Source: Patescibacteria group bacterium
GTDB lineage: Bacteria; Patescibacteriota; Microgenomatia; UBA10105; UBA927
DNA: 64,000 nt
Assembly (NCBI GenBank): GCA_023379025.1
Contig: JAMCTH010000009.1
Location: forward strand, 133,092-197,091
Direction of reading: 5' to 3'
The notes beneath the pieces are model-generated. The model made no database searches. It saw nothing but the letters and a program-made list of their open reading frames with translations, and was not told where the DNA came from. Positions 12,537 to 34,069 of this stretch are shown here, in pieces. How positions within the stretch are numbered: position 1 is the stretch's first letter; every line of letters begins with the position of its first letter. The position numbers and the translations under genes are program-made.

Positions 12537-13291
12537 GATTGCATGCTCATAATTAATTGCCGTTGAGTCGGTGGGTCATGCGAAAACAATGTAAATGCCA
12601 CATCCTCTCTTCTCCCGGCAGATCCCAGAGCAACTACATCATGCCATCCTTTCAATCCGTGTGCAACAATAGTGAGCATTCCCGCCCGTGCCGGAAATCC
12701 TCCTAAATAAGTAAGCGGGTGCACCCATAACGGGGTATCGGTTTCGTTATCGTTTGGCTCAACAGGGTGAACGGCAATAAGCTCATTTGGAACATATGCC
12801 ATGCGCGCTTCCACCCAGACATGTTGATTGATGAAATAATGGCCAATTACCCGTCGGGAAACCTGCACCATCTCAGGCGCCCAACCCATCTCTTCTATAA
12901 TTGCCCGTGCCCGGGTCACTTCAAGCATCTCTCCCGGCCTACGCGTCTCTGCGACAACACTGTAATCCCCAAAGTATTTATCGTTTTCCGGCTTGTCTCT
13001 GCGTTCACGACTCACCAATATATAGGGATGGTGATCGATGTCGGTATATACAACGAGTACGACTCCACCTATTTCTTTATCCGGTGGCGGAGACCAATCC
13101 ACAATTCCGGAGTCTTCGTGAAGCATTTTTTCATAAACATCAGCACCAAATTCTGTTACAAGTTCCGGAGCGAGATGCATACTGGCAGTAGGCATATTAA
13201 AAGCAACGTCACCAAGGTCTCTAAAACCATTCGGAGTAAAACGGTTGGGGACGATTACCATGCTGCCCGAGCCATATTCAGCCAATCTCAT
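12533..13291 (-). CDS. hypothetical protein with degenerate Nudix-like motif
   Basis: RAIIEEMGW resembles REUxEExGU part of a Nudix box; otherwise unrecognised. Confidence 0.35.
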   Translation of the reverse strand: MRLAEYGSGSMVIVPNRFTPNGFRDLGDVAFNMPTASMHLAPELVTEFGADVYEKMLHEDSGIVDWSPPPDKEIGGVVLVVYTDIDHHPYILVSRERRDKPENDKYFGDYSVVAETRRPGEMLEVTRARAIIEEMGWAPEMVQVSRRVIGHYFINQHVWVEARMAYVPNELIAVHPVEPNDNETDTPLWVHPLTYLGGFPARAGMLTIVAHGLKGWHDVVALGSAGRREDVAFTLFSHDPPTQRQLIMSMQS

Positions 13292-13293
13292 AG

Positions 13294-13917
13294 TTAGAGA
13301 AACGGAACTTTAAAGATTCCGAGCGTATACGTGAGATAACTATATGCAGCAAAGACCGGAAGACAGATGCCCAATGCACCTACGATCCGCAAAAGATCCA
13401 GTTTCATGGAAAACCGGAGCGTCAGATAGGTCAAAAGGACTTTCCATGAAAGAATGGTTACGCTGAACACGAGAAAGACGAGACTAAATGCAATCCCTGC
13501 CATACTGGTCGTCCTGGGCGGCGGCAGCAAAACATAGAGCAGAGAGGTGACAAAAAACCAGCTTACCGTCGGAAGGAGGGTATATGCCCAGCCGATGCTG
13601 AGACTCCGATATCCGCCTCTCCCGCCCACGAGTTTTGCCGCCATCCACAGCACCAGAGAAGCGAAAAGAAACGAGATGCCGCTCATTCCTGCAAGCCATA
13701 AAAACGTCCGCGTCAGAAGAAACGGACGAAACGATGCGGTACGCACCGCTGCGGCCAGCCCGAAATACACCGCAAGTAATGCTCCTATATACGGCAGCTC
13801 CCAATATGTGGAGTGAAACATTATCGTGCGGTAGGTTTCATACGGCCGCGTAACGAGTCCGATGCTGTTTTTCCCGAACCGCACGCTTGCCACGGCAACA
13901 TCCTCAAGGAGGCTCAT
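13294..13917 (-). CDS. polytopic membrane protein (Yip1-like topology), unknown function
   Basis: 5-6 predicted hydrophobic helices, 207 aa. Confidence 0.4.
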   Translation of the reverse strand: MSLLEDVAVASVRFGKNSIGLVTRPYETYRTIMFHSTYWELPYIGALLAVYFGLAAAVRTASFRPFLLTRTFLWLAGMSGISFLFASLVLWMAAKLVGGRGGYRSLSIGWAYTLLPTVSWFFVTSLLYVLLPPPRTTSMAGIAFSLVFLVFSVTILSWKVLLTYLTLRFSMKLDLLRIVGALGICLPVFAAYSYLTYTLGIFKVPFL

Positions 13918-14732: not shown

Positions 14733-15680
14733 TCACTTCCCGCGCTTCCAAACAAATATCACGAGTTCCCGCAGATACGCCCGGACGAGCGGAGACGGAC
14801 GCATAGCATCGAGTGCCGATAGTGCTTGTCGGGTAAGCGTCTCAGAGCGATTCGTACCAACGTCCGGCGGGATTTCACCGTCCAGTACGTCGTCACGAAG
14901 CTGAAACAGCTGCCCCACCGGGAGACCGAAACGGGCAAGCTGTGCCAGCGTAAGCGCTGAAGCTCCTGCAAGCGCCGCCCCCATCTGAAGCGGCCGGATC
15001 ACGCTGTACCATGCGGTTTTATAGGTATCAATCGTAGCTTTCGATATCGAGGGGTCTCCGTCCGCAAAAAGGATGTCGAGTGTTTGTCCGAAGATAATCT
15101 CCTGCTTCATCTGTCGGTACAGGGACAGAACACCCCGATGCTCCGTTTTTCCGGTCTGTTCATCTGCCCAAACCAGCGCAAGATCGCCCGCGAGAAGCCC
15201 CATGCTCTCGCCGAAGCGGATGCGCGCCACCCCTCCGACAGCCCTGCTTTTTGCCTGAAAAAACGCATGGACGGTGGGTCGTCCGCGGCGTTTCAGATCC
15301 GCATCCATAATGTCGTCATGAATGAGAGCAAACGTATGAAAAAGCTCTGTTCCGACCATAACCGACATCAGTTCTCCGGGTAAAGCCCGCGCTGGCGCAG
15401 CAGAGCGGACGCTATTGCTCTGTGTCATGTATCCCAACCAAACCAGAAACGGGCGCATGCGCTTTCCTCCGCCGAGCGTAAAGGCTTCAATCGCAGCAAC
15501 AAGCCGGATACATTGGCTGTCTACCTGTTTTGCTTCGGCAGTTTTTTGAACAAAAAACACGCGGAGTGCCCGATCAACTATTCGCTTCATTGCTCTTACA
15601 TCACGCTGAAAATCCATGCAGCCAGTATAATGGAGTATTTCCGGGTTTACAATTTGCCCAATGAGGAGCGTCATCGGCAT
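14733..15680 (-). CDS. trans-polyprenyl diphosphate synthase (FPP/GGPP synthase family)
   Basis: First and second Asp-rich motifs ALIHDDIMD and FQLRDDVLD. Confidence 0.8.
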   Translation of the reverse strand: MPMTLLIGQIVNPEILHYTGCMDFQRDVRAMKRIVDRALRVFFVQKTAEAKQVDSQCIRLVAAIEAFTLGGGKRMRPFLVWLGYMTQSNSVRSAAPARALPGELMSVMVGTELFHTFALIHDDIMDADLKRRGRPTVHAFFQAKSRAVGGVARIRFGESMGLLAGDLALVWADEQTGKTEHRGVLSLYRQMKQEIIFGQTLDILFADGDPSISKATIDTYKTAWYSVIRPLQMGAALAGASALTLAQLARFGLPVGQLFQLRDDVLDGEIPPDVGTNRSETLTRQALSALDAMRPSPLVRAYLRELVIFVWKRGK

Positions 15681-15720
15681 CTCGTTGACACTGGCATTCC
15701 CCTTCCCCTACACTACGGGT

Positions 15721-16044
15721 ATGGAGCGTGTGTTTGCTGCATTTGATATCGGTACCCAGGCATCGCCGTCATTCAGGACCTTTTCCAATTTCGGGGATCT
15801 TGTTTCCGTTATCGTTAAAAATGCCTATGTTCTGGCCGGTGTTTTAAGCTTTCTTTTGTTGGTTTTCGGCGCGTTCGGGTTTATAATGGGAGCAGGCGGC
15901 GGAGACAGCAAAAAAATGGAAGAGGCCAAACAGACGCTTACGTGGGCGGTGGTTGGACTTCTTCTGGTCATCGGATCATATTGGATCATCCTGATCCTAT
16001 CAAAAATTACGGGATATAATATCCTGTCACCGCCGGCGTCGTAA
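15721..16044 (+). CDS. pilin-like two-helix protein, paralog 3 (start set at MERVFAAFD)
   Basis: N-terminal M-E-R-V-F-A motif shared with paralogs 4 and 7; helices flanking MGAGGGDSKKMEEAKQ loop. Confidence 0.5.
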   Translation: MERVFAAFDIGTQASPSFRTFSNFGDLVSVIVKNAYVLAGVLSFLLLVFGAFGFIMGAGGGDSKKMEEAKQTLTWAVVGLLLVIGSYWIILILSKITGYNILSPPAS

Positions 16045-16050
16045 TTCCGT

Positions 16051-16398
16051 ATGGAACAGGTCTTTGCACAGGATGTCATAGGAAAAGTAAACGTGACCAC
16101 CCTCCTCCCCGGAGGGTATCACAGCCTCAGTGGCATCGGTCTCTTCTTTTCCAATGTCCTCCGGCTTCTCTTTGTCGCCGCGGGGATCCTGGCGTTTCTC
16201 AACCTCATTATCGCGGGGTACCAGTACATAACGGCGGGGGGCGACGCCAAAGCGCTTGAAAAAGCGTGGAGCAGAATATGGCAATCTCTTGTCGGCCTTA
16301 TTCTTATCGTCGGCTCATTTGCGCTGGCCGCCCTGTTCGGCTACATCATCTTTGGTGACGCCGGATTTATTCTGAATCCCAAAGTGTATGGACCATAA
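16051..16398 (+). CDS. pilin-like two-helix protein, paralog 4
   Basis: MEQVFAQD N-terminus; ITAGGDAKALEKAWSR loop between two hydrophobic helices. Confidence 0.5.
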   Translation: MEQVFAQDVIGKVNVTTLLPGGYHSLSGIGLFFSNVLRLLFVAAGILAFLNLIIAGYQYITAGGDAKALEKAWSRIWQSLVGLILIVGSFALAALFGYIIFGDAGFILNPKVYGP

Positions 16399-16801
16399 CT
16401 CTCTCTTTCATCATGTGCGCGTGTTGGCACAGGGAAGTTCTGACAGTCTCGGCACCATCGGCGGCGGCGGCTTGGGACCGTTTGCTGCAAAAAATTACTC
16501 CGGCGGAGGAACCCAGGCGCTCGTCGACATTACCAAAGCGGTTTCTGCCATCATCGGATTTCTCACGATTGCAGCGGGCATTTGGTTTCTGTTTCAGCTT
16601 CTGATCGGTGCCATCTCCTGGATCACGAGCGGCGGGGACAAAACAAACCTCGAAAACGCTCGGAACCGCATCATCCACGGGCTCATCGGGCTTATCATCG
16701 TCGTCATGGGGTGGGCTATCCTTGCAATCGTCGGACAGTTTCTGGGGTACGACATACTTCTTTCAAATCCCGGCAGCATCATAAACCAAATCAGGCTCTA
16801 A
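16388..16801 (+). CDS. pilin-like two-helix protein, paralog 5 (true start may be GTG near 16415)
   Basis: VRVLAQG N-terminal motif; AISWITSGGDKTNLENARNRIIH loop region identical at DNA level to paralog 6. Confidence 0.45.
   Translation: MDHNSLFHHVRVLAQGSSDSLGTIGGGGLGPFAAKNYSGGGTQALVDITKAVSAIIGFLTIAAGIWFLFQLLIGAISWITSGGDKTNLENARNRIIHGLIGLIIVVMGWAILAIVGQFLGYDILLSNPGSIINQIRL
16606..16678 (+). repeat. 73-bp perfect direct repeat, copy A (inside pilin paralog 5)
   Basis: cggtgccatctcctggatcacgagcggcggggacaaaacaaacctcgaaaacgctcggaaccgcatcatccac identical to 16966-17038. Confidence 0.9.
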
Positions 16802-16805
16802 CCGT

Positions 16806-17153
16806 ATGCACGAAACGCTGGCACAGCTCACCAATCCCGTCCTCCCGCCGATTATCGGCCAGGGAGGGTCGGCCAGCGGTATACGGGGAGCCGGCATATT
16901 TATCAGCAATCTCATTTCCATTATCTTCATCGTTTCATTTCTTCTTGCGTTTTTTTTCCTCCTGACCGGTGCCATCTCCTGGATCACGAGCGGCGGGGAC
17001 AAAACAAACCTCGAAAACGCTCGGAACCGCATCATCCACTCGCTCATGGGACTTATCATTGTGGCGGCCGCATGGGCCATCATGGTGCTCGTCGGACAGT
17101 TTATCGGGCTCGACATCCGTCAACTGCCCATTCCGTCCATATCAGGGCAGTAG
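16806..17153 (+). CDS. pilin-like two-helix protein, paralog 6
   Basis: MHETLAQLTN N-terminus (cf. paralog 2); contains 73-bp segment identical to paralog 5. Confidence 0.5.
   Translation: MHETLAQLTNPVLPPIIGQGGSASGIRGAGIFISNLISIIFIVSFLLAFFFLLTGAISWITSGGDKTNLENARNRIIHSLMGLIIVAAAWAIMVLVGQFIGLDIRQLPIPSISGQ
16966..17038 (+). repeat. 73-bp perfect direct repeat, copy B (inside pilin paralog 6)
   Basis: Identical to 16606-16678; flanking sequence diverges immediately. Confidence 0.9.
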
Positions 17154-17247
17154 ACATCACACATTGGCACACTATTGACAAGGTGATAATGTTTTGTAAC
17201 AATAGAAAGTACGATATTATCAGGCTATTCTTGAAAGAGGAGGATAT

Positions 17248-17580
17248 ATGCTGCAGGTATTTGCTCAGGATCTGACCATCGGTCAGCCATCAAACGTCAA
17301 AATATCCAATCTCGGCATGCTCATCAGCGCGTTGGTCGGAACACTGCTCATCCTGTCGGCCCTTCTTGCATTTTTCTTCCTCATCCTTGGCGGTATCCAG
17401 TGGATCACCTCGGGCGGAGATAAGGCAGGCATGGAAGCCGCACGGAACAAAATCACCCACGCCATCGTCGGGCTTATCATCGTCGGTGCCGCATGGGCCA
17501 TCATGATCCTCATTCAGAATTTCCTGGGGATCACGGTCATCGGCGGCGGCATCAACATCCCCAAGCCGTTCAATCAATAA
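17248..17580 (+). CDS. pilin-like two-helix protein, paralog 7
   Basis: AGGAGG Shine-Dalgarno 7 nt upstream of ATG; MLQVFAQD N-terminus; ITSGGDKAGMEAARNK loop. Confidence 0.55.
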   Translation: MLQVFAQDLTIGQPSNVKISNLGMLISALVGTLLILSALLAFFFLILGGIQWITSGGDKAGMEAARNKITHAIVGLIIVGAAWAIMILIQNFLGITVIGGGINIPKPFNQ

Positions 17581-17649
17581 AGCCGAGGAGCCGTCATTTT
17601 CCATACTCACCTGTGGACAAAAAACGCGTTTATACGTCATAATACAGGT

Positions 17650-17961
17650 ATGGTATTTGCCGCTACCTATATCGGTGATACGCCGCAAATCAAAGACCTG
17701 GAAACCCTCTTCGGCAACGTCATTGCTTCTGTCATGGGAATAGCTGTTGTCGTCCTCTTTGTCATGCTTCTTGTGGGCGGATTTACCTTCCTTATGTCCG
17801 GCGGCGACCAGAAAAAGCTGGATGCCGCCAAAGGAACGCTTACATCGGCGATCGTCGGAATTGTCGTCGTCATCTCTGCGTATCTTATCCTCCGCACGAT
17901 CGGTGTCATCACCGGAGTAAGCCAAATCACCACGGTAAACTTGAATCTCGGACACCCCTAG
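17650..17961 (+). CDS. pilin-like two-helix protein, paralog 8
   Basis: Two hydrophobic helices flanking MSGGDQKKLDAAKGT loop. Confidence 0.5.
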   Translation: MVFAATYIGDTPQIKDLETLFGNVIASVMGIAVVVLFVMLLVGGFTFLMSGGDQKKLDAAKGTLTSAIVGIVVVISAYLILRTIGVITGVSQITTVNLNLGHP

Positions 17962-19612: not shown

Positions 19613-22600
19613 CTAGTGCCTACTGCTTTTTTGTTCCTCCTGAATGGATTCATTCGTTGCTACCGCTAGCGTAGCAACGGGTATAACCCACCAATACTTA
19701 CGGAATATCCCCCACGACATACGCCAGCCTAACGTCGCTTTAAAATCTCTCCTCAATTTATTGATGTATTTGATATCAGTAAAGACACCGACCCGTTGAA
19801 TTTCATTCAACACCTCACCAATTGTGTGCTCATCCCACTTGTTGCCCTCCGGACCGAGGTAGCGCACGGAAAGAGATACCGAAGAAGCTATGGATTCCGG
19901 CCATTCCTTTATCTTCCTACCCAACTTATTGTGTTCAAGAAAGTGTTTCCACCCCGGAAACCAACCAAGAACCGGCAAGTGTTCCGCTTCCATTTCACCG
20001 ATATTCTGCATAATTCCCTGAAGCCCAGGAACAAGTCCCAAAAGGCCACGCCATCCGTCCAAAAAAGGATTAAACATTCTGTTTCTATTCATCTCGATCC
20101 AGGTGTCTACGATATGATATAGGGCTTTTTCTGCATCAACCGAAGATGCATATGAGACAAACTGCTGCTTAAATTCATAGAACTTTTTGATGGTTTCCTT
20201 GGGATCTTTCGGCGACAGAAATTCCGGTTTATTGATGAGATCAAAAAATAAATCCCGTATCGCTGCCATATTGATCATATCGCGTCCGCGTCTGAGCATG
20301 ACGCTCGTACCGAGTTTAAAGAAATTTACCTCTTCCCAATCAAAATCAGCAACGGATAGGGTGATCGGAAATTTCGCATGCGCCCATGCTTCCATCGGTG
20401 TGAGATATTGATGATTCTTGGGATCACGATCAGTAGTTACATAACTGTGCACATCTTTCATGACATTTCTGAATGCTGCAATTTTATCTTCGGGTACTTT
20501 AAGCTGCGCCAGAAGCGGTTTTATATGTGCATCAAATCCTTCTTGACTCATAAGGTTCAAGTTTGGGTCTATCAGAAGGTCTCCTTTGCGAATCTTCTGC
20601 TCTGCTATCGAGAGAGCGCGTTGAAACGTGAGCCATTCGGGTGCGCCAAGAACATGGTTTTTTTCAAGTATGCCATCCATTACTTCACCCGAAAGAAGTT
20701 GCAAATATTTAGACGGTGTCCGTTTAAGCATACGATCAAGAACCTGCATACGCTCTGCATCGGTTTGGGCAATATAAAATTGAATACCGAGTGCTTGATT
20801 CTCCCAAGCCAGAGGGCTTCCGTGCTTGGCCATAATATGTTTTCTGATTTCATCGAACGTGCCTGCTTCAAAACGCCAGCCCGTCGCATCAAAGCTTCCT
20901 CCGCCGGCCAAAAAACCCGGTCCCAAAAGCTCGGTAAACGATACCCCCATTTCGCCCTCTGCAAACTCCATGATTTTGCGCATTCGCATCATTTCCGGAG
21001 AGTTACTGTAGGATTTTTCGTCATCCTTCCACGCTTGTGTTTTCGTTATTTTGAAGCCCCTCTCAAGAATTGCTTTTTCACGAAGCATCGCTCGGGCCTG
21101 CTCGCCCATGAGCCCGCCCATATTGAACCGGTGGGCAAAAAGCTCGGGGTTATAGATACGTACTATATCTTCCATAAACGGCGCCCACATAACGGATTTC
21201 CCCTCTATTCCGCTTTCCCGTAGCGTCCGGAACCGGTATTTTTCATGCATGGGCCGAATTGCCTGATAGGCCGATATTGCGGCGATGTGGCCGGAGCCTA
21301 TTTCAATCATCCGCGCCGCAAATATGGCATCTCGGATTTTCCATTCCTGATCCGCTATCTGTTGTCGCGTCATCCCTTGAGACAACATTTCTGCTACCAT
21401 ACGCTCGTGTACTTCGGCCTCTATTGGAGAATAACTTCTGTATACATCCAACGTACCTATTTTCTTTGCATCTGATGGCAATATCGTTTGTTTATCGGAT
21501 AGCCTGGTATAGAGTTCTTTTTTTTCAGTAATAAGCTCGGGGAGTCGTTTAAGAAGTTTTTGTTCGTCCCTATCCAAGGAAACACCTTTTTCCCGTTTCC
21601 CAATCAAATCATCATATTTCTGCTGAAGGGCAATCCACTGATTTCCTACCTCTGTGTAGACCAGAATGTCCTCATCATGAATTGTTACGCCACGCGCTAC
21701 AATCTCAGCTTGCGTTTTGATATTCTCCATGAGCAGTTTTCGTTCCGTAATTTCCTGCTGGGTAGTACCGAGTTGGTTTAAGGAATCCCGACGGCGCATT
21801 TCCATGTAATATTCATCCATGGTAATTTTTTTCGTCGGGTTTGTTTCCCAATACGGCTGAACTTCTTTTGCAAGATACTCAACCGCCTGGTGGTAACGAC
21901 TCATCTTATTTGCGACCATATCGCCGAGCGCGGTATCGTAGTGGGACATTGCCATATTTGCAAGCGGAACTTTGCCCCAGAAATCGAGATCCGCTCCAAG
22001 CATACGCTGAAGCGCTCCGACTTTATCTTTCACATCTCCAGGGTCATATGCTAATGCTTTCAGCAGATACTCGTGTCTGCCGCGATCCTTCCAAAGGTAT
22101 TCATACGGCTGTAACCTAATTGTGCCGATCCTATCACCATATTTCATCTTCATGAATCTTTTAAACGCTTCAAATTTGTACATATCGGGAAGTTCGGGGC
22201 GCTGGCTAGTTCTACCTACTCCGTAGATATCAAAAATAAACTCAGAAAACCATTTTGCCTCTCCTTCTTCGCCTGTCAATATTAATTGCTTTTCATCACT
22301 AGTAAATCCAGTTAGGGGTAACACGGTTATTTCCTGATCCCTATTCTGTAAATCAGGGGGTAAGGTTTGTCTTGCTTCTTCCCACGTAACGTTTATCTCT
22401 CCCATCCGTCCGCGGCCTTTTGCCAATTCTTCCTGATGTAGCTGTGCTAAAGTTACCTGTCGTTGGCGTAATCTCAAAATATACGGTTTTGCTTCACTTG
22501 AACGACGCAGACGAACGGAGTCTCGGGCGAGACGTTCAGCTTCTTCGCCAAGAACTTTCGGGTCATTTATCAAGGTAGGATCTGTATCAAATAATGTTTG

Positions 22601-23305
22601 AACGTTTTCAAGACGAACCCGCAAAGGAGAGCCTCGTCCGGGCGCACCTGGTGCTGAAGCGTCAAAAAATGTAAACCGAGTGCCTCCGCGAGGCGGACGG
22701 ACCCGTTGGCCAACTGCGGTATATCCGAGGTCGAGCGCCGCCTGATCTGGATCTGTAATTCCATAAACTGGAGCGTTGTTTTCATTAATCACATGAGTAA
22801 ATACCGCATGTTGTGCTTCCTGAACAATTGGTCTGACGTCTTCAGGAAGATCGTAAACGCGTTTCAAGACACCATTGGAATCGCTAAAAACTTTCTGTGC
22901 TGCTTGCCATTGGTCCGGCGTTGCTGTTTGGTTGTCAAATATTCTTCGGAGCTCCACAAGCTTTTGTTGGATCCCCACCTGATCTCCGCCCTTTGTATGT
23001 TTTGCCTGCTCGGCAAGCAAATCGAGCTTCTGGGTAAGCGAAAGGTCTGTATACGCCCGGCCGAACGCGCGCCTGGACGCGCCATCGAGAATTTCTATAA
23101 ATGGAACGGTTCGTTCGACAGCGAGATCAGGAGCTTTCCTTTCCCTGCCCTCAATCACTGAGGCGGCAGCCGCACGGATCCTTACTGCGACCTGTTCAGC
23201 AGTGTGTTCTTGCTGTAAGACGTGTTTCGGATGCCGTGTTTCACCATTCTTCCGGACAACCCTTTCTATCGCTCCTTTTATCCCGCCGAACTCTACTGCA
23301 CTCAT
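19613..23305 (-). CDS. giant (1230 aa) protein of unknown function, C-terminal TM anchor, no recognisable catalytic motifs
   Basis: Single uninterrupted ORF; highly charged, helix-rich composition; C-terminal hydrophobic segment YWWVIPVATLAVA; no N-terminal signal peptide; no Walker, relaxase or nuclease motifs spotted by eye. Confidence 0.6.
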   Translation of the reverse strand: MSAVEFGGIKGAIERVVRKNGETRHPKHVLQQEHTAEQVAVRIRAAAASVIEGRERKAPDLAVERTVPFIEILDGASRRAFGRAYTDLSLTQKLDLLAEQAKHTKGGDQVGIQQKLVELRRIFDNQTATPDQWQAAQKVFSDSNGVLKRVYDLPEDVRPIVQEAQHAVFTHVINENNAPVYGITDPDQAALDLGYTAVGQRVRPPRGGTRFTFFDASAPGAPGRGSPLRVRLENVQTLFDTDPTLINDPKVLGEEAERLARDSVRLRRSSEAKPYILRLRQRQVTLAQLHQEELAKGRGRMGEINVTWEEARQTLPPDLQNRDQEITVLPLTGFTSDEKQLILTGEEGEAKWFSEFIFDIYGVGRTSQRPELPDMYKFEAFKRFMKMKYGDRIGTIRLQPYEYLWKDRGRHEYLLKALAYDPGDVKDKVGALQRMLGADLDFWGKVPLANMAMSHYDTALGDMVANKMSRYHQAVEYLAKEVQPYWETNPTKKITMDEYYMEMRRRDSLNQLGTTQQEITERKLLMENIKTQAEIVARGVTIHDEDILVYTEVGNQWIALQQKYDDLIGKREKGVSLDRDEQKLLKRLPELITEKKELYTRLSDKQTILPSDAKKIGTLDVYRSYSPIEAEVHERMVAEMLSQGMTRQQIADQEWKIRDAIFAARMIEIGSGHIAAISAYQAIRPMHEKYRFRTLRESGIEGKSVMWAPFMEDIVRIYNPELFAHRFNMGGLMGEQARAMLREKAILERGFKITKTQAWKDDEKSYSNSPEMMRMRKIMEFAEGEMGVSFTELLGPGFLAGGGSFDATGWRFEAGTFDEIRKHIMAKHGSPLAWENQALGIQFYIAQTDAERMQVLDRMLKRTPSKYLQLLSGEVMDGILEKNHVLGAPEWLTFQRALSIAEQKIRKGDLLIDPNLNLMSQEGFDAHIKPLLAQLKVPEDKIAAFRNVMKDVHSYVTTDRDPKNHQYLTPMEAWAHAKFPITLSVADFDWEEVNFFKLGTSVMLRRGRDMINMAAIRDLFFDLINKPEFLSPKDPKETIKKFYEFKQQFVSYASSVDAEKALYHIVDTWIEMNRNRMFNPFLDGWRGLLGLVPGLQGIMQNIGEMEAEHLPVLGWFPGWKHFLEHNKLGRKIKEWPESIASSVSLSVRYLGPEGNKWDEHTIGEVLNEIQRVGVFTDIKYINKLRRDFKATLGWRMSWGIFRKYWWVIPVATLAVATNESIQEEQKSSRH

Positions 23306-23386
23306 ATAGCCCTTTCTTTACCTCTATTGTATAGTGTCATGACATAGGGAGCAATATAACGGGTTCGCGCCACCGGAAAACATAGA

Positions 23387-23722
23387 TCACCCCGTTTCAC
23401 CCGGCTTGAAACCGACAAACCAGAATCGAGGATCAACAAAGGACTGAATATCCAACACGCGGGTGTGTTGCTTCGGTATCTGACAGACTTTGATCGCTGC
23501 CTCAGCATCATTGGTTCCGGACTCACTGAGGGACCCATACGGAAGAAGGAGGGGAAAAACATGTGCGGGTCCGAGCGCCCGAACCGCAAGAAACAGGCCT
23601 GTTGCAGAGTCTACGCCGCCTGATACCGCTATTACGGCATCGGTAAAGCCCGTCCTCCGAAACGTCTGCCTCATGAAAAGCGTAAGCGTTTGAGCCGGCT
23701 TCCCGGGATCTATCGCATTCAT
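23387..23722 (-). pseudogene. nadE: NAD+ synthetase (nadE) 5' fragment - only the first ~110 codons incl. PP-loop are present
   Basis: AVSGGVDSATGLFLAVRAL...LPYG matches NadE N-terminus (SGGxDS PP-loop); ORF stops after 111 aa and no NadE-like continuation exists in any frame before the next gene (19613..23305). Confidence 0.5.
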
Positions 23723-26574: not shown

Positions 26575-26604
26575 GTTGCGAAGGTTGCCGCAACCTTTTA
26601 GAAT
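26575..26604 (+). promoter_or_regulatory. sigma70-like promoter TTGCGA-18-TAGAAT with a perfect 17-nt palindrome (AAGGTTGC-C-GCAACCTT) filling the spacer; candidate repressor operator for the PrgI-VirB4-hydrolase operon
   Basis: Direct reading of 26575-26604; a second 8-bp inverted repeat GTGAAAAC...GTTTTCAC lies at 26526-26552 in the same divergent intergenic region. Confidence 0.35.
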
Positions 26605-26632
26605 GAGAGTGGGTTTAACCGGCAAAATAATC

Positions 26633-28051
26633 ATGGAACAACATCCTGTACCGCAAAATGTCACAACGTTTCAGTTCCGCCTGATCGGTGACATGACAAT
26701 CAAACAATTCGGGTACCTCGCCGGGGGCGTGATCCTTGCGTATCTCTGTTACAAGCTTCCGCTTCCGTTCTTTTTTACCTGGCCGCTGACGCTCCTTACG
26801 GGTCTTGGAGGGTTTGGCCTTGCATTTGTCCCCATTGAAGAACGGCCCATGGACGTGTGGATCATGTCGTTTTTCAAAAACGTCTACAGCCCGACCCAGT
26901 ACGTGTGGCAAAAAACTAAACAGCCGGAACTGCATGCCGCATCCTCCGTGTCTGCTCCGGATCAAAAACCGGGGGGTGCGCAAGACCTGCGCGGCGGACC
27001 TCCCGGTGCTCCGGCAGCGCTCTCCCAAACACCACACAAGCAGGGTGCCTCGTTGGCTGCCCTGGTGCGGGCAGCGCTTTTTCCGGCCGGCACCATCGCA
27101 CATTCAGACACCACGGCGGCTCACCGACCGGCTCTTTCGGCGAACACCCCGCCGGCCGCAACAACCCACATAAAAACACCGCCGCTGCTTCTCCATCGTT
27201 TTTCCTATGGCATCGGCGCCGTCATCGCCCGGATCAAACGGCTTTTTGCAGCGCCCGCCGTATCCCCGAAGACTACACCGCAGTATGCGTTTTCAGATGT
27301 CTTTGCATCGCTCCATGCCGGGCCAAAAACTTCCCCGCACAAAGCACAGCCTTCCCGCCCGCCCGCCATCCTTGAAACGCTCAGGCCGGAAACGCCGTCG
27401 TTCCCCATTCCGTTCACCCCGATCCCAACAATTCCGCACACGCCGCAACCCCTGGCAACCGACACAGGCATCCAGACGCCGGCGCCTTCAAACACCCGAA
27501 CCGAACCCCAACCCCCAAACCCTCAAAGCCGTCTGACGGTCTCTCCCGTTGAAAAAGAGCGTATGGAGCAGCAGTTGCATGAGCTGAACAGACACGCCTC
27601 AGCCGCACCCTCCGCGACGTACATGACGCCGTCCGCGCCGGGAAAATCATCAAACACGGTGCGCGTCATAGCACCGGAAGGAACGATCAGGGCCGGTATC
27701 CCCAGGCTCACCACGGTCCCGAATGTTGTAACCGGCATTATAAAAAACGAAACGGGAGACCTGCTGCCCGGGATACTCATCACCGTACGGGACTTTGAAG
27801 GTGTGCCGCTCCGGGCGCTCAAGTCAAATAAGCTCGGACAGTTCGCCGCATCAACCCCGCTTCAAAACGGCACCTATGTGATTGAGGTGGAAGACCCGAG
27901 GGGAAAACACCACTTTGACCGGGCGCAGATTACGCTCGCAGGAAACCAGGCTCCCGCTCTTGAAATCAGTGCAAAAACCGAAAAACAGCTCAACCGGGAA
28001 CGGCTGGAACGGGAAATTTTCGGCCGCACACCCGGCGCGCCCCACACATGA
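26633..28051 (+). CDS. PrgI/VirB3-like small-membrane-domain protein extended by a Pro-rich linker and a C-terminal carboxypeptidase-regulatory-like (beta-sandwich) domain; start set at MEQHPVPQ
   Basis: N-terminal TTFQFRLIGDMTIKQFGYLAGGVILAYL + second TM helix matches PrgI-family (VirB3-like) layout directly upstream of VirB4; long P/A/T-rich low-complexity region; C-terminal GTYVIEVEDPRGKHHFD. Confidence 0.45.
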   Translation: MEQHPVPQNVTTFQFRLIGDMTIKQFGYLAGGVILAYLCYKLPLPFFFTWPLTLLTGLGGFGLAFVPIEERPMDVWIMSFFKNVYSPTQYVWQKTKQPELHAASSVSAPDQKPGGAQDLRGGPPGAPAALSQTPHKQGASLAALVRAALFPAGTIAHSDTTAAHRPALSANTPPAATTHIKTPPLLLHRFSYGIGAVIARIKRLFAAPAVSPKTTPQYAFSDVFASLHAGPKTSPHKAQPSRPPAILETLRPETPSFPIPFTPIPTIPHTPQPLATDTGIQTPAPSNTRTEPQPPNPQSRLTVSPVEKERMEQQLHELNRHASAAPSATYMTPSAPGKSSNTVRVIAPEGTIRAGIPRLTTVPNVVTGIIKNETGDLLPGILITVRDFEGVPLRALKSNKLGQFAASTPLQNGTYVIEVEDPRGKHHFDRAQITLAGNQAPALEISAKTEKQLNRERLEREIFGRTPGAPHT

Positions 28052-28704
28052 CGAAACAGATTGTTCCCATCCGCTCTTCCACACAGGAGTTCATAGAAAT
28101 AGAGGACGTTAGCCACAATATCGTTATGTTTAAGGATGGATCATGTGCTGCGATTATTACAACCACGGCTGTAAACTTCGGCCTCCTTTCAGAAAAAGAG
28201 CAGGAGGCAATTATCTATGCCTACGCAGGGTTTCTGAACTCACTCTCCTTCCCCGTAGAAATCATCGTGCGCTCGCAACAAAAGGATGTCACCGCGTATC
28301 TCAGACTGCTTGAGGCGCAGGAAAAGAAAGAAACAAACCCCAAGCTTGTCAAAAACATCCACGATTACCGCATGTTCGTTGCGGAAACCGTCAAAGAAAA
28401 GGATGTTCTCGACAAAAAGTTCTACATCATCATACCCTTTTCATACCTGGAGCTCGGCGCGTCAACAAAAGTATTGTTTGGCGGTAAAACCCGCGGACTC
28501 CCCTACCCCAAAGACTATGTTTATGAACGCGCCCTTTCCGTCCTGACCCCAAAATGCGATCATGTCATCCGACTGCTGGGACGGCTCGGCCTCCGCGGCA
28601 CACAACTCACGAGCGAACAGGTAAAAAAATATTTCTTCCTCGCCTATAACCCAAGCAGCAGCGCTCCCGAGGGAAAACCCGGGTCCGTGCCGGAAACACC
28701 ATGA
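28048..28704 (+). CDS. VirB4/TrbE/CagE-family ATPase, N-terminal domain encoded as separate ORF
   Basis: IVPIRSSTQEFIEIEDVSHNIVMFKDGSCAAIITTTAVNFGLLSEKEQEAIIYAYAGFLNSLSFPVEIIV matches the CagE_TrbE_VirB N-terminal domain; stop overlaps next start (ATGA). Confidence 0.55.
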   Translation: MTKQIVPIRSSTQEFIEIEDVSHNIVMFKDGSCAAIITTTAVNFGLLSEKEQEAIIYAYAGFLNSLSFPVEIIVRSQQKDVTAYLRLLEAQEKKETNPKLVKNIHDYRMFVAETVKEKDVLDKKFYIIIPFSYLELGASTKVLFGGKTRGLPYPKDYVYERALSVLTPKCDHVIRLLGRLGLRGTQLTSEQVKKYFFLAYNPSSSAPEGKPGSVPETP

Positions 28705-30689
28705 CAAATTTCAATCTGCAGACATTCATAAAAAAATTTATCGATCCGATGCCGGACGATACCCCCATCAGGCATGAGGCGGGCGTGCCCCTGTCTATTG
28801 CCGATGTCATCGCGCCGCCCCTTGTCGACGTGGACTTTGATTATCTCAAAATCGGCGAGTGGTATTTCCGAACGCTTTTTGTCGTTGGGTACCCGAGATT
28901 TGTAAGCGCCAATTGGCTCGAACCGCTCATCTCATTCAACCACACGCTTGATATCTCGATGTTTATTTATCCGACCAAATCGGAGGAGGTCCTTGAAAAC
29001 TTAAAAAGGAAAGTTGGTGAGATGGAAGCGACCATCCAGTCCGACATGAAACGCGGACGGGTGGTCGAACCGTCCATACAGGTCGCGCTCGAAGACGCGC
29101 TCTCCCTCCAGCAGGAGCTTGCAAAAGGTTCCGAACGGTTCTTTCAGTTTGGCTTATACATAACCATACCGGCCAAATCTCTTGAGGATGTAAACAAAAC
29201 AACATCGCAGGTAGAGGCAACACTCGGATCACTTCTTATCATTACCAAAAAAGCGGTGCTCCAGATGGATGAGGGATTTAGAACGACACTGCCCATGGGC
29301 CAGGACCGCATTGTTGTCACGCGAAACATGGACACGACCTCCCTCGCCACAACGTTTCCGTTCACGACGTCCGAGCTTACGGCAAACGAGGGCATTCTCT
29401 ACGGCATGAACGAGCATAACGGAAGCCTTATCATCTTCGACCGCTTCACCCTTGAAAACGCCAACACTGTCGTATTCGGAAAATCCGGGGTCGGCAAAAG
29501 CTACATGGTAAAACTGGAAATCATGCGCAGTCTTATGTTTGACACCGAAATCATCGTCATCGATCCGGAAAACGAGTATGAGGCGCTCACGCACGCGCTC
29601 GGCGGCGAATACATCCGGTTCCATTTTGGCTCGACCACAAAACTCAACCCCTTTGATTTGGCCCTTCTTACGCGGGGAGCGCCGAAGGACCTGCGGGCTC
29701 AGGATGCGGAGGAGGAGGAGGAAAGCGAACTCAACCAGAAAATTCTTTCTCTCCACGGATTTTTCCGCGTTGTCATGGGAACATTGAGCGCCACCGAGGA
29801 CGCCCTTCTTGATCGCGCGCTTATTCTGGCTTATAAACAAAAGGGTATTACTCCCGATCCCGCCACCCAAACCCTCGAACCGCCGCTTATGGAAGATCTT
29901 TATAAAGCGCTGGTCGGCATGGAAGAACCGATGGCAAGGGGCCTCGCCGACCGGATAGAAAAGTTTGTAAAAGGGAGTCTTGTCGGCATCTTTGATCAGC
30001 AGACCAACGTGGAGATCAGAAACCCGCTGACGGCATTCTCCATCCGCGACCTTGAAGAGGAGCTCCGGCCGATTGCCATGTATCTCATTCTTGATTTTAT
30101 CTGGACAAAAGTCCGCCGCGACATGAAAAGAAGAATTCTCGTCGTTGATGAGGCTTGGTATATGATGAAATATCCGGATTCCGGACAATTTCTTAACTCT
30201 ATCGCCAAACGCGCAAGAAAATATTACCTGGGGCTAACCACCATTTCGCAGGATGTTGAAGACTTTTTGTCCGTAGACCTCGGAAAGGCCATCATACAAA
30301 ACAGCAGCCTCCAGGTGCTCCTGAAACAGTCAACCGCGGCAATAGATCAGGTTGCAAAAGTTTTTTTCCTATCAGAAGGAGAGAAGCACCTGCTTCTCTC
30401 GGCGGACGTCGGAGAGGGGCTCTTTTTTGCCGGTCCGGCACACGCTGCCGTCCGCGTCATTGCTTCCCCAGTGGAGCACGAACTCGCAACCACCAAACCG
30501 CAGGAGCTGGCGGGAAGAAGGCCGCTGCAGTCCGGTCAGGCTTCTTCCGCAGGAGACCAGGCTGTTCAGCCGGCCGGAGCGGATGGGGCCCGGAAGCCTC
30601 CCGCAATGCCAACGGACCACAGAACGCTTCCTGTTTCTAACAGGCCGATATTTACTGTTGAAACGGTTGCCCAGCCGAAACTATCCTAA
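28701..30689 (+). CDS. VirB4/TrbE/TraC-family T4SS ATPase, C-terminal ATPase domains
   Basis: Walker A VFGKSGVGKSYMV, IVIDPENEY, Walker B ILVVDEAWYMM, LGLTTISQDVEDF; 662 aa. Confidence 0.75.
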   Translation: MTNFNLQTFIKKFIDPMPDDTPIRHEAGVPLSIADVIAPPLVDVDFDYLKIGEWYFRTLFVVGYPRFVSANWLEPLISFNHTLDISMFIYPTKSEEVLENLKRKVGEMEATIQSDMKRGRVVEPSIQVALEDALSLQQELAKGSERFFQFGLYITIPAKSLEDVNKTTSQVEATLGSLLIITKKAVLQMDEGFRTTLPMGQDRIVVTRNMDTTSLATTFPFTTSELTANEGILYGMNEHNGSLIIFDRFTLENANTVVFGKSGVGKSYMVKLEIMRSLMFDTEIIVIDPENEYEALTHALGGEYIRFHFGSTTKLNPFDLALLTRGAPKDLRAQDAEEEEESELNQKILSLHGFFRVVMGTLSATEDALLDRALILAYKQKGITPDPATQTLEPPLMEDLYKALVGMEEPMARGLADRIEKFVKGSLVGIFDQQTNVEIRNPLTAFSIRDLEEELRPIAMYLILDFIWTKVRRDMKRRILVVDEAWYMMKYPDSGQFLNSIAKRARKYYLGLTTISQDVEDFLSVDLGKAIIQNSSLQVLLKQSTAAIDQVAKVFFLSEGEKHLLLSADVGEGLFFAGPAHAAVRVIASPVEHELATTKPQELAGRRPLQSGQASSAGDQAVQPAGADGARKPPAMPTDHRTLPVSNRPIFTVETVAQPKLS

Positions 30690-30701
30690 TACCGGTTTTG
30701 T

Positions 30702-33035
30702 ATGCCCGATAAAAACCACACCACACCCCAGGGAACGCTCGAGACCTTATTCCGGAGTGACCCCGCGCTCCTAAAGGCCGTTCAAATATTTGAGTATGCA
30801 AAAACACAACCGGAGTGGGAAAGCAAACTTACAACATTCCTCCAACAGACATACAACCTGACACCCGGACAATACGTTCTGACGGACCGGGTGTTTGGCG
30901 AGGCAATTAAGGCTTTTGCCCGACACTATCTGTTTGACACGGAGAGCGACCCCTCTGAGGGGCAAACGCTTGCTTCCACCGTTCCGCTCGACATCATCGA
31001 AAGCGCGTTCGTTTATCCGGAACGGCACCTTCAGGAAGAGACGTACCGTTCGTTTGCCAGACGTTTAACTGAAAATTATTACAACCAGACCGAACGATAT
31101 CTCCGGCGGGAGCAGGCCGAATACAACGCACGGCACCAGCTTGAGGAGTCAAGGAGGCGAGAGCGTGTGGCGGCCGCCATTGCTGACGCCGCCCAAAAGG
31201 CGCAATCAGCCGATGTATTCGAGGTTGAAGCACGGAGGATTCTCGATGCAAATGATGTAGTACAAAACATCGGGCCTCAGCGCGCCGCAGACCTTGTCCT
31301 CAGGCGGGAAATGGAGGTCTTTTCTCCGGCATCGGCTGTCCGGGACAGGGCCCGCGCAATTACCGACGAAATGCTCCGGTCCCGCACGAACCGTCCGGAT
31401 CTGCTTGCCGCAACCCTCGTGGAACAAAGCGCGTCTCACCCAAACACCCTTATTGCTTCATTGGTACCGGCCGCAGAGCGTGAAGCGGCGGCCCTTGGCG
31501 TCATAACGGCCGCCTATGTTCCGGGACACCCCGGCACACCGCCGGACAGAATCTTGCGTGCCTACAAGGATGGTGCCGCACAGCTATTGGGTGATGTTGC
31601 TCTTGGCATGTTGAATCCGGAGACAAGAGACCGCGTCATCGAGGCGGTGAAAGGACAATCATTTGAGCGTGCCATAAACGACAGGGGCGGACTGGAGAAA
31701 CGGTTCGGGACAGGGACAACCCCGTTTCTCGTACAGCTCCGTGCTGATACGCACAAAGCGGTCGCGGAAAGTTCTGCTGCCGCCCTGCGGAGCGCCAACG
31801 CCCACGGGCTTGCGGACAGGTGGCTTGCGCCGCTTCTCCTGCGATGGGGGCCGGGAGCGGTTCCTGTTGACGAGACTGCGTTCGCGCTGGTAGGGTTTGT
31901 GCAATCTTCCGGATTCTCATCGTTCCGGCCGCCCACCCCACCCACAACCCCCCCCACCGCCCATCCCGGGCTTGTCCCAGGAATCTATGCACAGAAAGAA
32001 GGGGCGCTACAATTTCTCTCAGCCGTGTGGGGGTGTCCAGAATTTCATCTGGCCACCCTGGTTCAGCAAAATATGGTGTCGGTCCGGTTTTCATATCTTG
32101 CTCTTTCACAGGATTTGTTTCTGTGGATTACCACAATCGGCTCCCCGGTTAAAAAAGCGGGCGCCATGGGAACTCTGGCTGCCATCGGAAAATCGGGTCT
32201 CTCAACAGGACTCGCCATCCTATTAGCCCCTGAAACGGGGGGCCTAAGTTTAATCGGAAAGATGGCTCTCAGTTTTTCTATAGATAAACTAACCAACGGA
32301 ATTTCCGGGGCGTTCCGTTTTTTTTCAAACCCCACGGGAAAAGAGGACCGGCTGGCTATGAACGGGTGGCTACTCCCCTTTCTCATTATCGCCCTTACAC
32401 TCATCCCTCTTTGGTTATTGTCAACGGCTTTTATGAGAGTGACGTCCGGCGCATTCAGTGTAACATCGAAACAAATCGGCAGCGGCCCGCCGGCCGGTAC
32501 GCCCATTATTTACACCGGCCCTCCTCCTCCGGCAACCCCGCGCGTTCCCTCCGCGGGACTCGCGGGCTGTCCTGTGGGCGGCGGCGTAGTTACGCAGGGA
32601 CCAAACGGCGCGGAGTCCCACCGGGGAATTGACGCGTATGACTTTGCCGTACCAATGGGGACGCCCGTCCGGGCCACGAGCGACGGCTTTGTTGCTGCGG
32701 CGGTGACGTCGTTTCGTCCAAACGAGTATAAATACCAGGACTTTGGGAACTATGTCCGCATGGTCGGAAGCGGCCCGGGCGGCGAATACTACACAACCTA
32801 TGCACACCTATTGAGCATAGCCCCGGAAGTTCAAACGGCGCTTCAGGCCGTGAGCGAAATGACAAACAGTCCGGCACGGCAAAATGACCCGGAACTTCTA
32901 AAACAGGCGACGATACGGGCGGGAACCATCATCGGATACACCGATAATACCGGTTACAGCACGGGGCCGCATCTTCATTATCAATATAACGGCCCCGGGC
33001 AAATGGTACTCCCTGACGGCTGTGGAGGACAATAA
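30702..33035 (+). CDS. membrane-associated cell-wall hydrolase with C-terminal M23 (LytM) peptidase domain (VirB1/PrgK-like role)
   Basis: HRGIDAYDFAVPMGTPVRATSDGFV...GNYVRMV...YAHL...GYTDNTGYSTGPHLHYQY (M23 HxxxD / HxH signature); central block of TM helices; immediately downstream of VirB4. Confidence 0.7.
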   Translation: MPDKNHTTPQGTLETLFRSDPALLKAVQIFEYAKTQPEWESKLTTFLQQTYNLTPGQYVLTDRVFGEAIKAFARHYLFDTESDPSEGQTLASTVPLDIIESAFVYPERHLQEETYRSFARRLTENYYNQTERYLRREQAEYNARHQLEESRRRERVAAAIADAAQKAQSADVFEVEARRILDANDVVQNIGPQRAADLVLRREMEVFSPASAVRDRARAITDEMLRSRTNRPDLLAATLVEQSASHPNTLIASLVPAAEREAAALGVITAAYVPGHPGTPPDRILRAYKDGAAQLLGDVALGMLNPETRDRVIEAVKGQSFERAINDRGGLEKRFGTGTTPFLVQLRADTHKAVAESSAAALRSANAHGLADRWLAPLLLRWGPGAVPVDETAFALVGFVQSSGFSSFRPPTPPTTPPTAHPGLVPGIYAQKEGALQFLSAVWGCPEFHLATLVQQNMVSVRFSYLALSQDLFLWITTIGSPVKKAGAMGTLAAIGKSGLSTGLAILLAPETGGLSLIGKMALSFSIDKLTNGISGAFRFFSNPTGKEDRLAMNGWLLPFLIIALTLIPLWLLSTAFMRVTSGAFSVTSKQIGSGPPAGTPIIYTGPPPPATPRVPSAGLAGCPVGGGVVTQGPNGAESHRGIDAYDFAVPMGTPVRATSDGFVAAAVTSFRPNEYKYQDFGNYVRMVGSGPGGEYYTTYAHLLSIAPEVQTALQAVSEMTNSPARQNDPELLKQATIRAGTIIGYTDNTGYSTGPHLHYQYNGPGQMVLPDGCGGQ

Positions 33036-33037
33036 TC

Positions 33038-34069
33038 ATGAAACGCAGACACATCGTCGTCCTTTTTGCGCTTTTTATTGTTTCTCTTTTTTCCGCGTAT
33101 CTGTGGCGTACGCAAAAACGTCCGCCCCCGCCGCAACCGATAGGCGGAGCCCGGTCCGCCGTCCCGATACCTCCCCCGAGCTTTCCTCCCGTACCCACAA
33201 TAGAACAGCCTGCGTACGTCGTTCCAACAGAAGCGGCGTTTCCCGGTTCTCTCCCTGCGTATGTCCGCACGTCTTCATTTTCAGACAACACACCTCCTTC
33301 TTCTGTAGCGGCGCGCCTGGGGTTCTCTGGTACCCCAAAAACGCTCGCTACAAGCCGGGGGAGTGTGTATTTATGGACAAACGGGGCGGCGTCTTTTACC
33401 ATCGGAGGAAATCCCGCGGACTTTGATTACCAATCCGGAGAAAATGCGGGTCGGCAAATCACAACAATTACCCCGGAAGGCGCACGGGCAATGCTTGAGG
33501 CGTTTCTGAAAAAAGCAGGGCTTACGGGCCCTGAAACAGGGTTTTCATTAACGGCGATCCACTACTTTGACCCGAAAAGCCCGGGCGGAGCAAACGAGAT
33601 ATTTGATGCATCACGGGCGACTCTCGCTCTTTTTGTTTTCGACTATACGCTTGGAGGGCGCCCTCTCTATGGTGGTATTCCCGGCACCGGAGGCATATCC
33701 ATCCGTATAAACGGGACGGGCTCCGTTGTTTCCGTTTCCGGCTATTGGTATCCAGGCCTGAAAAAAGAGGGGTCCTTCCCCATTATTTCGTCTGCGGCGG
33801 CTGTGGCGCGGCTCATCGCGCATTCAGGAGTGCTGCTGGATGTTTCGTCAACAAACAAGACCAACGAAGAACCGGAAACGTTCTCCCTGGCAACCACAAC
33901 CATCACGAAAACGGAGTTGGGATATTATGCGTCCCAGGGAGAGTCCCGGCTTTCCCCAATTTTCGTGTTTTTCGGGAAAAGCAACAATGATAACACGGGA
34001 AATCCGGTAACGACGGTGAGTGTCGTGTCGGCGGTCGCAACATTATCCGCCACGCCGGCGCAGCGATAA
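33038..34069 (+). CDS. N-terminally anchored extracytoplasmic protein, unknown (possible VirB8-like component, speculative)
   Basis: TM helix IVVLFALFIVSLFSAYLW, Pro-rich linker, ~280-aa globular part; last gene of the T4SS operon, start overlaps preceding stop. Confidence 0.4.
   Translation: MKRRHIVVLFALFIVSLFSAYLWRTQKRPPPPQPIGGARSAVPIPPPSFPPVPTIEQPAYVVPTEAAFPGSLPAYVRTSSFSDNTPPSSVAARLGFSGTPKTLATSRGSVYLWTNGAASFTIGGNPADFDYQSGENAGRQITTITPEGARAMLEAFLKKAGLTGPETGFSLTAIHYFDPKSPGGANEIFDASRATLALFVFDYTLGGRPLYGGIPGTGGISIRINGTGSVVSVSGYWYPGLKKEGSFPIISSAAAVARLIAHSGVLLDVSSTNKTNEEPETFSLATTTITKTELGYYASQGESRLSPIFVFFGKSNNDNTGNPVTTVSVVSAVATLSATPAQR

Follow-up and report, generated by a model that had tools for sequence, protein, structure and literature searches.

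A family of giant helical proteins with a constant place in the type IV secretion locus of Microgenomates

The DNA analysed here, referred to as the window, is a stretch of 64,000 nucleotides from the assembly GCA_023379025.1 of a Patescibacteria group bacterium (contig JAMCTH010000009.1, positions 133,092 to 197,091 of the forward strand). It carries a type IV secretion system (T4SS) locus, and within this locus lies a single gene for a protein of 1230 residues, hereafter the giant gene and the giant protein. The protein belongs to an uncharacterized, all-helical, membrane-tethered family that is a fixed part of the T4SS locus of Microgenomates, a group of ultra-small bacteria. As for its role, we tentatively favor a dedicated, lineage-specific T4SS component on the cytoplasmic face of the membrane, which would serve as a platform for the VirD4-like ATPase at the VirB6-like channel. 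We infer the topology, the link to VirD4 and VirB6, and the role as a platform from the observations described below. The coordinates of all features are collected in Table 1. An earlier note on this DNA had placed the gene between the VirB6-like gene and the nadD and VirD4-like genes; gene annotation agrees with this, and the giant gene is a physical part of the T4SS locus.

The giant gene is real and not a chance open reading frame (ORF), because its frame is open over 1201–1405 codons in about 20 independent genomes and its whole-gene ratio of nonsynonymous to synonymous substitution rates (dN/dS) is 0.015–0.06. This ratio, obtained from five close genome pairs with unsaturated dS, is equal to that of VirD4 and VirB4. 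Breakage of the frame in related assemblies, which the earlier note had proposed to check, was seen in two of them only (L016 and L025), and its description of a very large single ORF as a gene is borne out by the ORF, the open frame in relatives, and dN/dS alike. The ATG start codon is preceded by a GAAAGG ribosome-binding site (23316-23311).

A HMMER profile was built from the window protein and one homologue and was run exhaustively against 1.84 billion cluster representatives. It detected 94 clusters at E ≤ 1e-3, of which 73 were found at E ≤ 1e-30, and most members are 1170–1590 residues long. The term "orphan" in the earlier note is contradicted by this result. A word-indexed protein search gave as matches the identical entry (hypothetical protein M1555_04215) and one 38%-identical protein of 1244 residues; the same kind of search with a 53-sequence alignment likewise gave the giant protein itself and one homologue. 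This sparse outcome is a limit of the candidate filter, not a sign of orphan status. The conserved part of the family is the C-terminal portion of about 940 residues, and the preceding 300–600 residues are variable in both length and sequence.

Forty related loci, designated by L numbers, were retrieved: 23 from genomes, 16 from metagenomes, and one by exact look-up. All informatively titled genome records that carry the family are from Microgenomates, Gottesmanbacteria, or Woesebacteria, and a few records are titled only "Patescibacteria group bacterium" or "bacterium". No member was found in viral contigs. It should be mentioned that several third-party annotation (TPA) metagenome-assembled genomes (MAGs) with a typical Microgenomates T4SS locus (L003, L007, L010, L012, L013, L016-L019, L022, and L023) are titled "uncultured Gammaproteobacteria bacterium"; the title is apparently a placeholder or a taxonomic mislabel.

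The surroundings of the gene are constant. When the window proteins were used in tblastn, every locus with flanks showed the order M23-VirB4-TrsD-PrgI, followed by the divergent series VirD4-nadD-(nadE)-giant and, beyond the giant gene, by the convergent VirB6-like gene, the pilin array, and a sigma factor. The position of nadD is the same across loci, between VirD4 and the giant gene. The adjacency that is never broken is that with the VirB6-like gene: even the most divergent members of the family, which are 22–25% identical, still adjoin a convergent VirB6-like gene. In the window, the gap between the two convergent genes is 34 nt.

In the Gottesmanbacteria clade, the percent identities of VirD4 and the giant protein in successive pairs are 98/98, 96/96, 95/95, 92/90, 84/82, and 77/64. 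Such tracking of VirD4 divergence is the behavior of machinery. The constraint is distributed unevenly along the protein: in the core (residues 300-900), dN is below that of VirD4 in several pairs, and in the first 300 residues it is 3–10 times the core value.

The giant protein can be divided into a variable N-terminal region, a folded core, and a C-terminal tail. In an AlphaFold run on residues 1-1200, the predicted local distance difference test score (pLDDT) was 35–60 for residues 1-210, and a confident fold began at about residue 215; the N-terminal region also shows the lowest column conservation in the family. An AlphaFold2 model of residues 292-1230, based on a 56-sequence alignment, had a pLDDT of 89.5 and a predicted template modelling score (pTM) of 0.89, with about 55 helices and almost no strand. 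Eleven residues are invariant in the 53-sequence alignment: G539, M706, E712, R716, F727, G734, R811, R862, R1005, D1009, and P1093. Foldseek searches of the model against PDB and BFVD gave no structural neighbor at E ≤ 1e-3, and the TM-scores were below 0.13. Searches of the PDB by sequence, with the single protein as well as with the profile, gave coiled-coil noise only (for example, SNAP-25 at E of about 0.04). The protein had no domain match in Pfam, NCBIfam, PHROG, or PADLOC, and Pfam found no extra domain in six longer family members. The N-terminus is hydrophilic, which means that there is no signal peptide. The earlier note had reported that a signal peptide and recognizable motifs are both absent, and these results agree with it on both points.

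The most conserved block of the family is the C-terminus, with the pattern RKYWWVVPxATIAxA(4-6)EEKK..H; in other words, the conserved tail ends in an EEKK-rich stretch. A helix is predicted by AlphaFold at residues 1207-1228. The only hydrophobic run of the window protein is Y1204-T1217 (14 residues), whose best 19-mer has a Kyte-Doolittle (KD) value of 0.98 against the usual threshold of 1.6; it is followed, after the anchor, by the nine-residue charged tail QEEQKSSRH. In 63 family members, the best 15-mer in the last 50 residues has a mean KD of 1.66 and ends about 11 residues (6–14) before the C-terminus. The net charge of the N-terminal flank is +2.4 and that of the C-terminal flank is −0.5, the former being the more positive in 90% of these 63 members. 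At the family level, therefore, the hydrophilic N-terminus and the single hydrophobic segment, within about 30–40 residues of the C-terminus, are those of a tail-anchored membrane protein, whereas the window protein taken alone lies below the threshold. The C-terminal transmembrane anchor described in the earlier note thus stands for the family, with its mean hydrophobicity and conserved charges, and does not stand for the window protein by itself. From the positive-inside rule, an N-in/C-out topology is predicted; the body is predicted to be cytoplasmic because of the absence of a signal peptide and the charges of the flanks.

The state of the VirD4-like ATPase suggests what such a protein might be for. 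This ATPase has no transmembrane segment: its best 17-mer has a KD value of 1.49, and none reaches 1.6. Its N-terminal portion of about 330 residues corresponds to the DUF8128 domain in orthologues (an orthologue carries PF26449), which replaces the usual N-terminal membrane domain of type IV coupling proteins (T4CP). A tethering role of the giant protein for VirD4 is suggested because the ATPase lacks a transmembrane segment and its N-terminal third is the soluble DUF8128. In the monoderm T4SS of pIP501, the coupling protein TraJ, which has no transmembrane domain, is recruited by the membrane protein TraI; this is a precedent for the arrangement. However, the pIP501 partner is small and is not known to be similar to the giant family, and the tie between the giant protein and VirD4 is drawn from the neighborhood and from the lack of a hydrophobic segment in VirD4.

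In the proposed mechanism, the giant protein would consist of a flexible, variable, helical N-terminus of about 210 residues, a rigid all-alpha core of about 1000 residues, and the conserved tail anchor. The anchor would keep the entire body at the cytoplasmic side of the membrane, leaving about 10 charged residues outside. Tethered to the membrane in this way, the protein might serve as a platform on the inner side of the secretion channel, where it would dock or organize the VirD4-like ATPase, whose gene lies upstream on the same strand with only nadD and the nadE remnant in between. In this way, the ATPase could be set against the VirB6-like channel protein, which is encoded tail-to-tail with the giant gene.

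Several observations weigh against the platform role. The giant proteins of L004 and L028 (alleles at 8999-12736 and 10001-13708, respectively) are only 27% identical, though VirD4 and nadD are 95% identical between the same loci. The housekeeping genes of L001, a close relative of L004, are about 90–97% identical to those of L028. In the L004/L028 lineage, the flanking DNA is about 80% identical; the similarity stops at the spacer between nadE and the giant gene, is nil across the giant gene, is partial in the VirB6-like gene, and resumes at the pilin array. Judged from these alignments, the discontinuity is a local allele replacement, and allele replacement is more usual for determinants of host contact or specificity than for an internal scaffold. 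In addition, the tail of the window protein is only moderately hydrophobic (KD of about 1.0–1.3), which also fits a translocated, membrane-targeted substrate. Cysteine is depleted throughout the family (0.10% vs 0.57% in neighboring proteins) and is absent from 26 of the 63 members; depletion of cysteine is typical of exported or translocated proteins. Finally, the giant gene seems to own a promoter, so that operon coupling with VirD4 is not strict.

The VirB6-like proteins of L004 and L028 are 55% identical, and the M23 peptidase, compared between L001 and L028 only, is unusually diverged (50%). Two generalizations were considered and rejected. The first was general hypervariability of the giant protein, raised by an identity of 28% between L001 and L028; the other close pairs track VirD4, with dN/dS of about 0.02. 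The second was strict co-variation of the giant and VirB6-like proteins; the VirB6-like protein switches type (63% vs 83–89%) in pairs in which the giant protein has not switched.

Most of these points can be accommodated by the main rival explanation, which is possible though unlikely: the giant protein would be the principal translocated substrate of the T4SS, an effector or translocator. The VirD4-like ATPase would recognize its C-terminal tail and deliver it to a host bacterium, where the tail would insert into the host membrane, and the gene would fill the genomic slot held by the relaxase beside the coupling protein in conjugative ancestors. The replaced allele in near-identical genomes, the moderate hydrophobicity of the tail, the cysteine depletion, and the variable N-terminus are all in keeping with a substrate, as is the finding that conservation in the family is highest in the last 30 residues. 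On the strand that encodes the coupling protein, the giant gene comes two genes further downstream, and a conjugative relaxase gene commonly adjoins its coupling protein; most Patescibacteria clusters are without a relaxase (PMC12102498). However, the giant protein is present strictly one-to-one with the machinery and evolves with dN/dS like that of the ATPases, whereas effectors are usually patchy and faster-evolving. A rigid helical core of 1000 residues would need unfolding for transport, no catalytic domain is recognized, and no secretion signal has been defined for monoderm or Patescibacteria T4SS against which the tail could be scored. A more specific form of this explanation, which we regard as doubtful, is that the protein represents an unrecognized class of T4SS cargo or translocator that replaces the relaxase, is exported, and inserts its tail into the host membrane.

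The earlier note had named a surface factor, an effector, or a substrate of the secretion system as candidate roles; the predicted cytoplasmic body and the machinery-like evolutionary rate speak against the first of these. A surface-exposed adhesin or other factor for host contact, which would leave the cell without a signal peptide (for example, through the T4SS) and be anchored at its C-terminus, is improbable. As a rule, monoderm T4SS depend on a surface adhesin; in Patescibacteria, none has been detected (PMC12102498). The depletion of cysteine and the replacement of the allele alongside the diverged VirB6-like and M23 genes would also suit an adhesin. On the other hand, no signal peptide is present, the flank charges predict the opposite topology in nine-tenths of the members, and the fold is wholly helical, with no beta-rich, repeat, or lectin-like domains. 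The very strong, machinery-like constraint and the lack of hypervariability within clades are also difficult to reconcile with such a factor.

A housekeeping or NAD-related function, for example that of a NAD-consuming enzyme linked to nadD and nadE, is very improbable. It would explain why nadD, and nadE where present, is always directly upstream; the unbroken adjacency, however, is with the VirB6-like gene. The family is confined to genomes with the T4SS arrangement described above, and nadE, unlike the giant gene, is dispensable. The model is all helical and shows no ADP-ribosyltransferase (ART), Sir2, TIR, or other NAD-binding fold. A role as a NAD-utilizing enzyme was dropped, as no supporting fold or motif was seen.

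The nadE gene bears on the age of the giant gene at this locus. In the window, it is reduced to 111 codons, of which only residues 1-97 are NadE-like. The remnant retains the PP-loop SGGVDS and matches positions 3-84 of the 242 positions of the Pfam NAD_synthase profile. In tblastn, residues 1-97 are 47% identical to a 255-residue orthologue, and there is no homology beyond; residues 98-255 of the orthologue have no counterpart, in comparison with a complete NadE domain of about 250 residues that comprises the PP-loop, the nicotinic acid adenine dinucleotide (NaAD)-binding region, and the dimerization region. The earlier note, which had seen nadE stop after about 111 codons with the PP-loop present, was correct on this point. 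The remnant is a probable pseudogene from which about 60% of the enzyme has been deleted, and no second nadE is found in the window. Its start codon overlaps the stop codon of nadD (ATGA). The giant ATG is 81 nt from the end of the nadE ORF and 126 nt from the end of the NadE homology. In this 126-nt gap, an out-of-frame peptide, FRWREPVILLPMS followed by a stop, is faintly like NadE C-termini (FKHHLPFLP before the stop); the likeness is too weak, and a C-terminal remnant was rejected.

In related loci, a short NadE is not the norm, a point that the earlier note had wished to see checked: relatives carry either a full-length gene or none. Six distinct loci (L001/L003, L004, L018, L023, L025, and L028) have an intact nadE between nadD and the giant gene, where the frame is open for 250–275 codons ahead of the stop. 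At least 14 genomes lack nadE, and there nadD and the giant gene are 56–92 nt apart. In a neighbor-joining tree of VirD4, TrsD, and nadD (1122 ungapped columns), the loci without nadE form one clade, and the window is placed with the lineages that have nadE. Because of this placement, the loss in the window is a second, independent event; nadE is dispensable, and the giant gene was in place long before. The decay in the window appears to have taken place by deletion of roughly 400 nt.

The earlier note had proposed that insertion of the giant gene cost nadE its 3' part. The cut after about 97 homologous residues, at that short distance before the giant start codon, invites the idea of a recent arrival that destroyed the end of nadE. 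Nevertheless, this explanation is rejected: the giant gene holds the identical position in every related locus, occurs beside an intact nadE in the six loci and without any nadE throughout one clade, and has been under long-term purifying selection. Its GC content (0.455–0.50) is near that of the surroundings (about 0.50–0.52), and the conserved promoter-like element upstream of it is retained. Truncation of nadE is instead a separate event, in which a dispensable gene decayed by reduction while the giant gene and this element stayed intact. As such, nadE is a minor snapshot of ongoing reductive evolution: it was lost twice, once completely and once by half-deletion.

The promoter-like element consists of a −35 box TTGCTC (23354-23349), a 17-nt spacer, and a −10 box TACAAT (23331-23326). 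In nearly all related loci, the pattern TTGnnn-17/18-TA(G/C)AAT is found again 10–55 nt before the giant ATG. The element is putative, the assignment being made at the level of consensus. A generic scan for promoters and terminators performed no better than on shuffled sequence, and the element was not listed in it because its −35 box matches at 3 of 6 positions only. In L005-L011, L016, L018, and L020-L024, a pair of GCGCG motifs 6–12 nt apart occurs within 100 nt upstream of the giant gene. The pair is common to the Gottesmanbacteria loci without nadE, where it is located between the −10 box and the start codon (for example, AAGCGCGTCAATATAGCGCGTT), and it is not present in the window. It may form a leader hairpin or represent an operator.

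The locus in which the giant gene lies is of a known kind. VirB4, TrsD, PrgI/VirB3, the VirB6-like protein, a cell-wall hydrolase, and the VirB2-like pilin array are all found at 15.6-34 kb of the window. It is the chromosomal, origin-proximal, monoderm-type T4SS locus, similar to mating pair formation (MPF) type FATA, that has been described for Patescibacteria (PMC12102498). The Patescibacteria T4SS derives from the conjugation machinery of monoderms. Saccharibacteria require it for epibiotic growth, and a relaxase is missing from most clusters (PMC12102498, PMC10633639). No component like the giant protein is mentioned in the main text of the 2025 survey of T4SS in Patescibacteria (PMC12102498). 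We consider the giant protein to be a new lineage-specific component within this known kind of system, whose function we infer.

The closest parallels are SEML1_0011 (998 residues) and SEML1_0013 (1088 residues) of Southlakia epibionticum, which are essential, extended VirB6/TrbL-like proteins (PMC10633639, supplementary tables). Like the giant protein, they are large, mostly helical, and encoded in a Patescibacteria T4SS cluster, with the PrgI-VirB4 module on one side and the pilin array on the other. They have C-terminal helical domains resembling armadillo (ARM) repeats. By annotation, they are polytopic VirB6/TrbL-like or permease-like proteins, whereas the giant protein has one weak C-terminal segment and adjoins a separate VirB6-like gene. 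A polytopic VirB6/TrbL protein has at least five hydrophobic helices; the giant protein has no 19-residue window at a KD of 1.6, and it is the 523-residue neighbor that shows this feature. Relaxases and other DNA transfer and replication (Dtr) proteins are also large and cytoplasmic, lack a signal peptide, and are encoded beside the T4CP gene, with relaxases as the canonical protein that conjugative T4SS translocate. However, the giant protein has no recognizable nicking domain (such as HUH/Relaxase, Rep_trans, or a MobC-type nuclease), the feature that marks the mobility (MOB) families of relaxases. TssL of the type VI secretion system and IcmH/DotU of the type IVB system, which are tail-anchored helical subunits of the membrane complex, share with it only the predicted topology, in which a helical domain in the cytoplasm ends in one C-terminal transmembrane helix.

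Table 1. Features of the T4SS locus and of the giant gene in the window
Feature	Position	Strand	Basis or remark
VirB2-like T4SS pilin genes, array of six	15661..17961	+	Pfam T4SS_pilin in 6/6 ORFs
VirB6-like polytopic membrane protein, 523 aa	18007..19578	+	eight hydrophobic segments (signal-like N-terminus and seven others)
Giant gene, 1230 aa	19613..23305	-	single ORF, ATG start; ORF listing and translation
C-terminal tail anchor of giant protein (predicted)	19643..19702	-	R1202-K-Y-W-W-V-I-P-V-A-T-L-A-V-A-T-N-E-S-I1221
Folded all-alpha core, about aa 215-1200	19706..22663	-	AlphaFold
N-terminal region, about aa 1-210	22676..23305	-	variable length and sequence; predicted helical, low confidence
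Promoter-like element of giant gene (putative)	23326..23354	-	-35 box, 17-nt spacer, -10 box
nadE remnant, 111 codons	23387..23722	-	NadE part aa 1-97 only (23432-23722)
nadD (nicotinate-nucleotide adenylyltransferase), 185 aa	23719..24276	-	Pfam CTP_transf_like, E=3e-21
VirD4-like coupling ATPase, 727 aa	24290..26473	-	Pfam TrwB_AAD_bind, DUF87, TraG-D_C
Divergent T4SS operon	26576..34069	+	Pfam, NCBIfam, hydropathy
PrgI/VirB3-like	26576-28051	+	Pfam and NCBIfam
TrsD/TraC-like	28048-28704	+	Pfam and NCBIfam
VirB4	28701-30689	+	Pfam and NCBIfam
M23 peptidase	30702-33035	+	Pfam and NCBIfam
343-aa membrane protein	33038-34069	+	hydropathy
dnaN and dnaA	34085-36728	-	adjoin the T4SS locus

The other genes of the locus showed several features of their own. 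The VirB6-like protein has a weak NCBIfam match to the pLS20_p028 conjugation membrane protein. The six tandem pilins are mutually divergent, being about 30–50% identical to one another in tblastn, and tandem divergent pilin genes have been reported for Microgenomatia and Saccharimonadia. Between related genomes, the conservation of the pilin paralogues is unequal and ranges from 66% to 94%. An ORF of 221 residues on the minus strand (17290-17955) was rejected as a gene: it is almost certainly not one but the antisense shadow of two pilin genes, whose conservation it mirrors. The PrgI-like ORF was given a TTG start by the program (26576-26632 region, plus strand), and the similarity to orthologues begins at about residue 20; to judge from the alignment, the true start is probably the ATG 19 codons downstream (MEQHPVP...). 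In a Microgenomates MAG (L012, about 50-3568, minus strand), VirB4 is an uninterrupted ORF of 1258 codons with an in-frame insert of about 590 residues inside the Walker A motif (FGK|SIAGW...LFVHN|SGGGKS, where the bars mark the insert boundaries). With its LAGLIDADG-like motifs, a His-Asn pair at its end, and a Ser directly after it, the insert has the anatomy of an intein.

The cumulative GC skew of the window has its minimum at about 34-36 kb, which places the secretion locus beside the replication origin. Also near the origin, the region 36902-50235 encodes two sulfatases, a phosphodiesterase-family protein, a GDSL lipase, two O-antigen-ligase-like (Wzy_C) proteins, one of them fused to tetratricopeptide repeats (TPR), and two family 4 glycosyltransferases (GT4). 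It is an envelope or glycan module and looks unusual for a reduced genome.

The giant family is thus a conserved family of about 1200 residues that has a confident model but no known fold and is obligatory in the Microgenomates T4SS locus. It adjoins a coupling ATPase that has lost its membrane anchor, and is a concrete candidate for either the missing platform for membrane or substrate or the missing cargo. It offers testable features in the tail motif, the invariant Glu, Arg, and Asp residues, and the two very divergent alleles in close genomes. If the cargo explanation were true, the giant protein would be the first candidate molecule by which Microgenomates epibionts act on their hosts, and the divergent, swapped alleles would mark host specificity.

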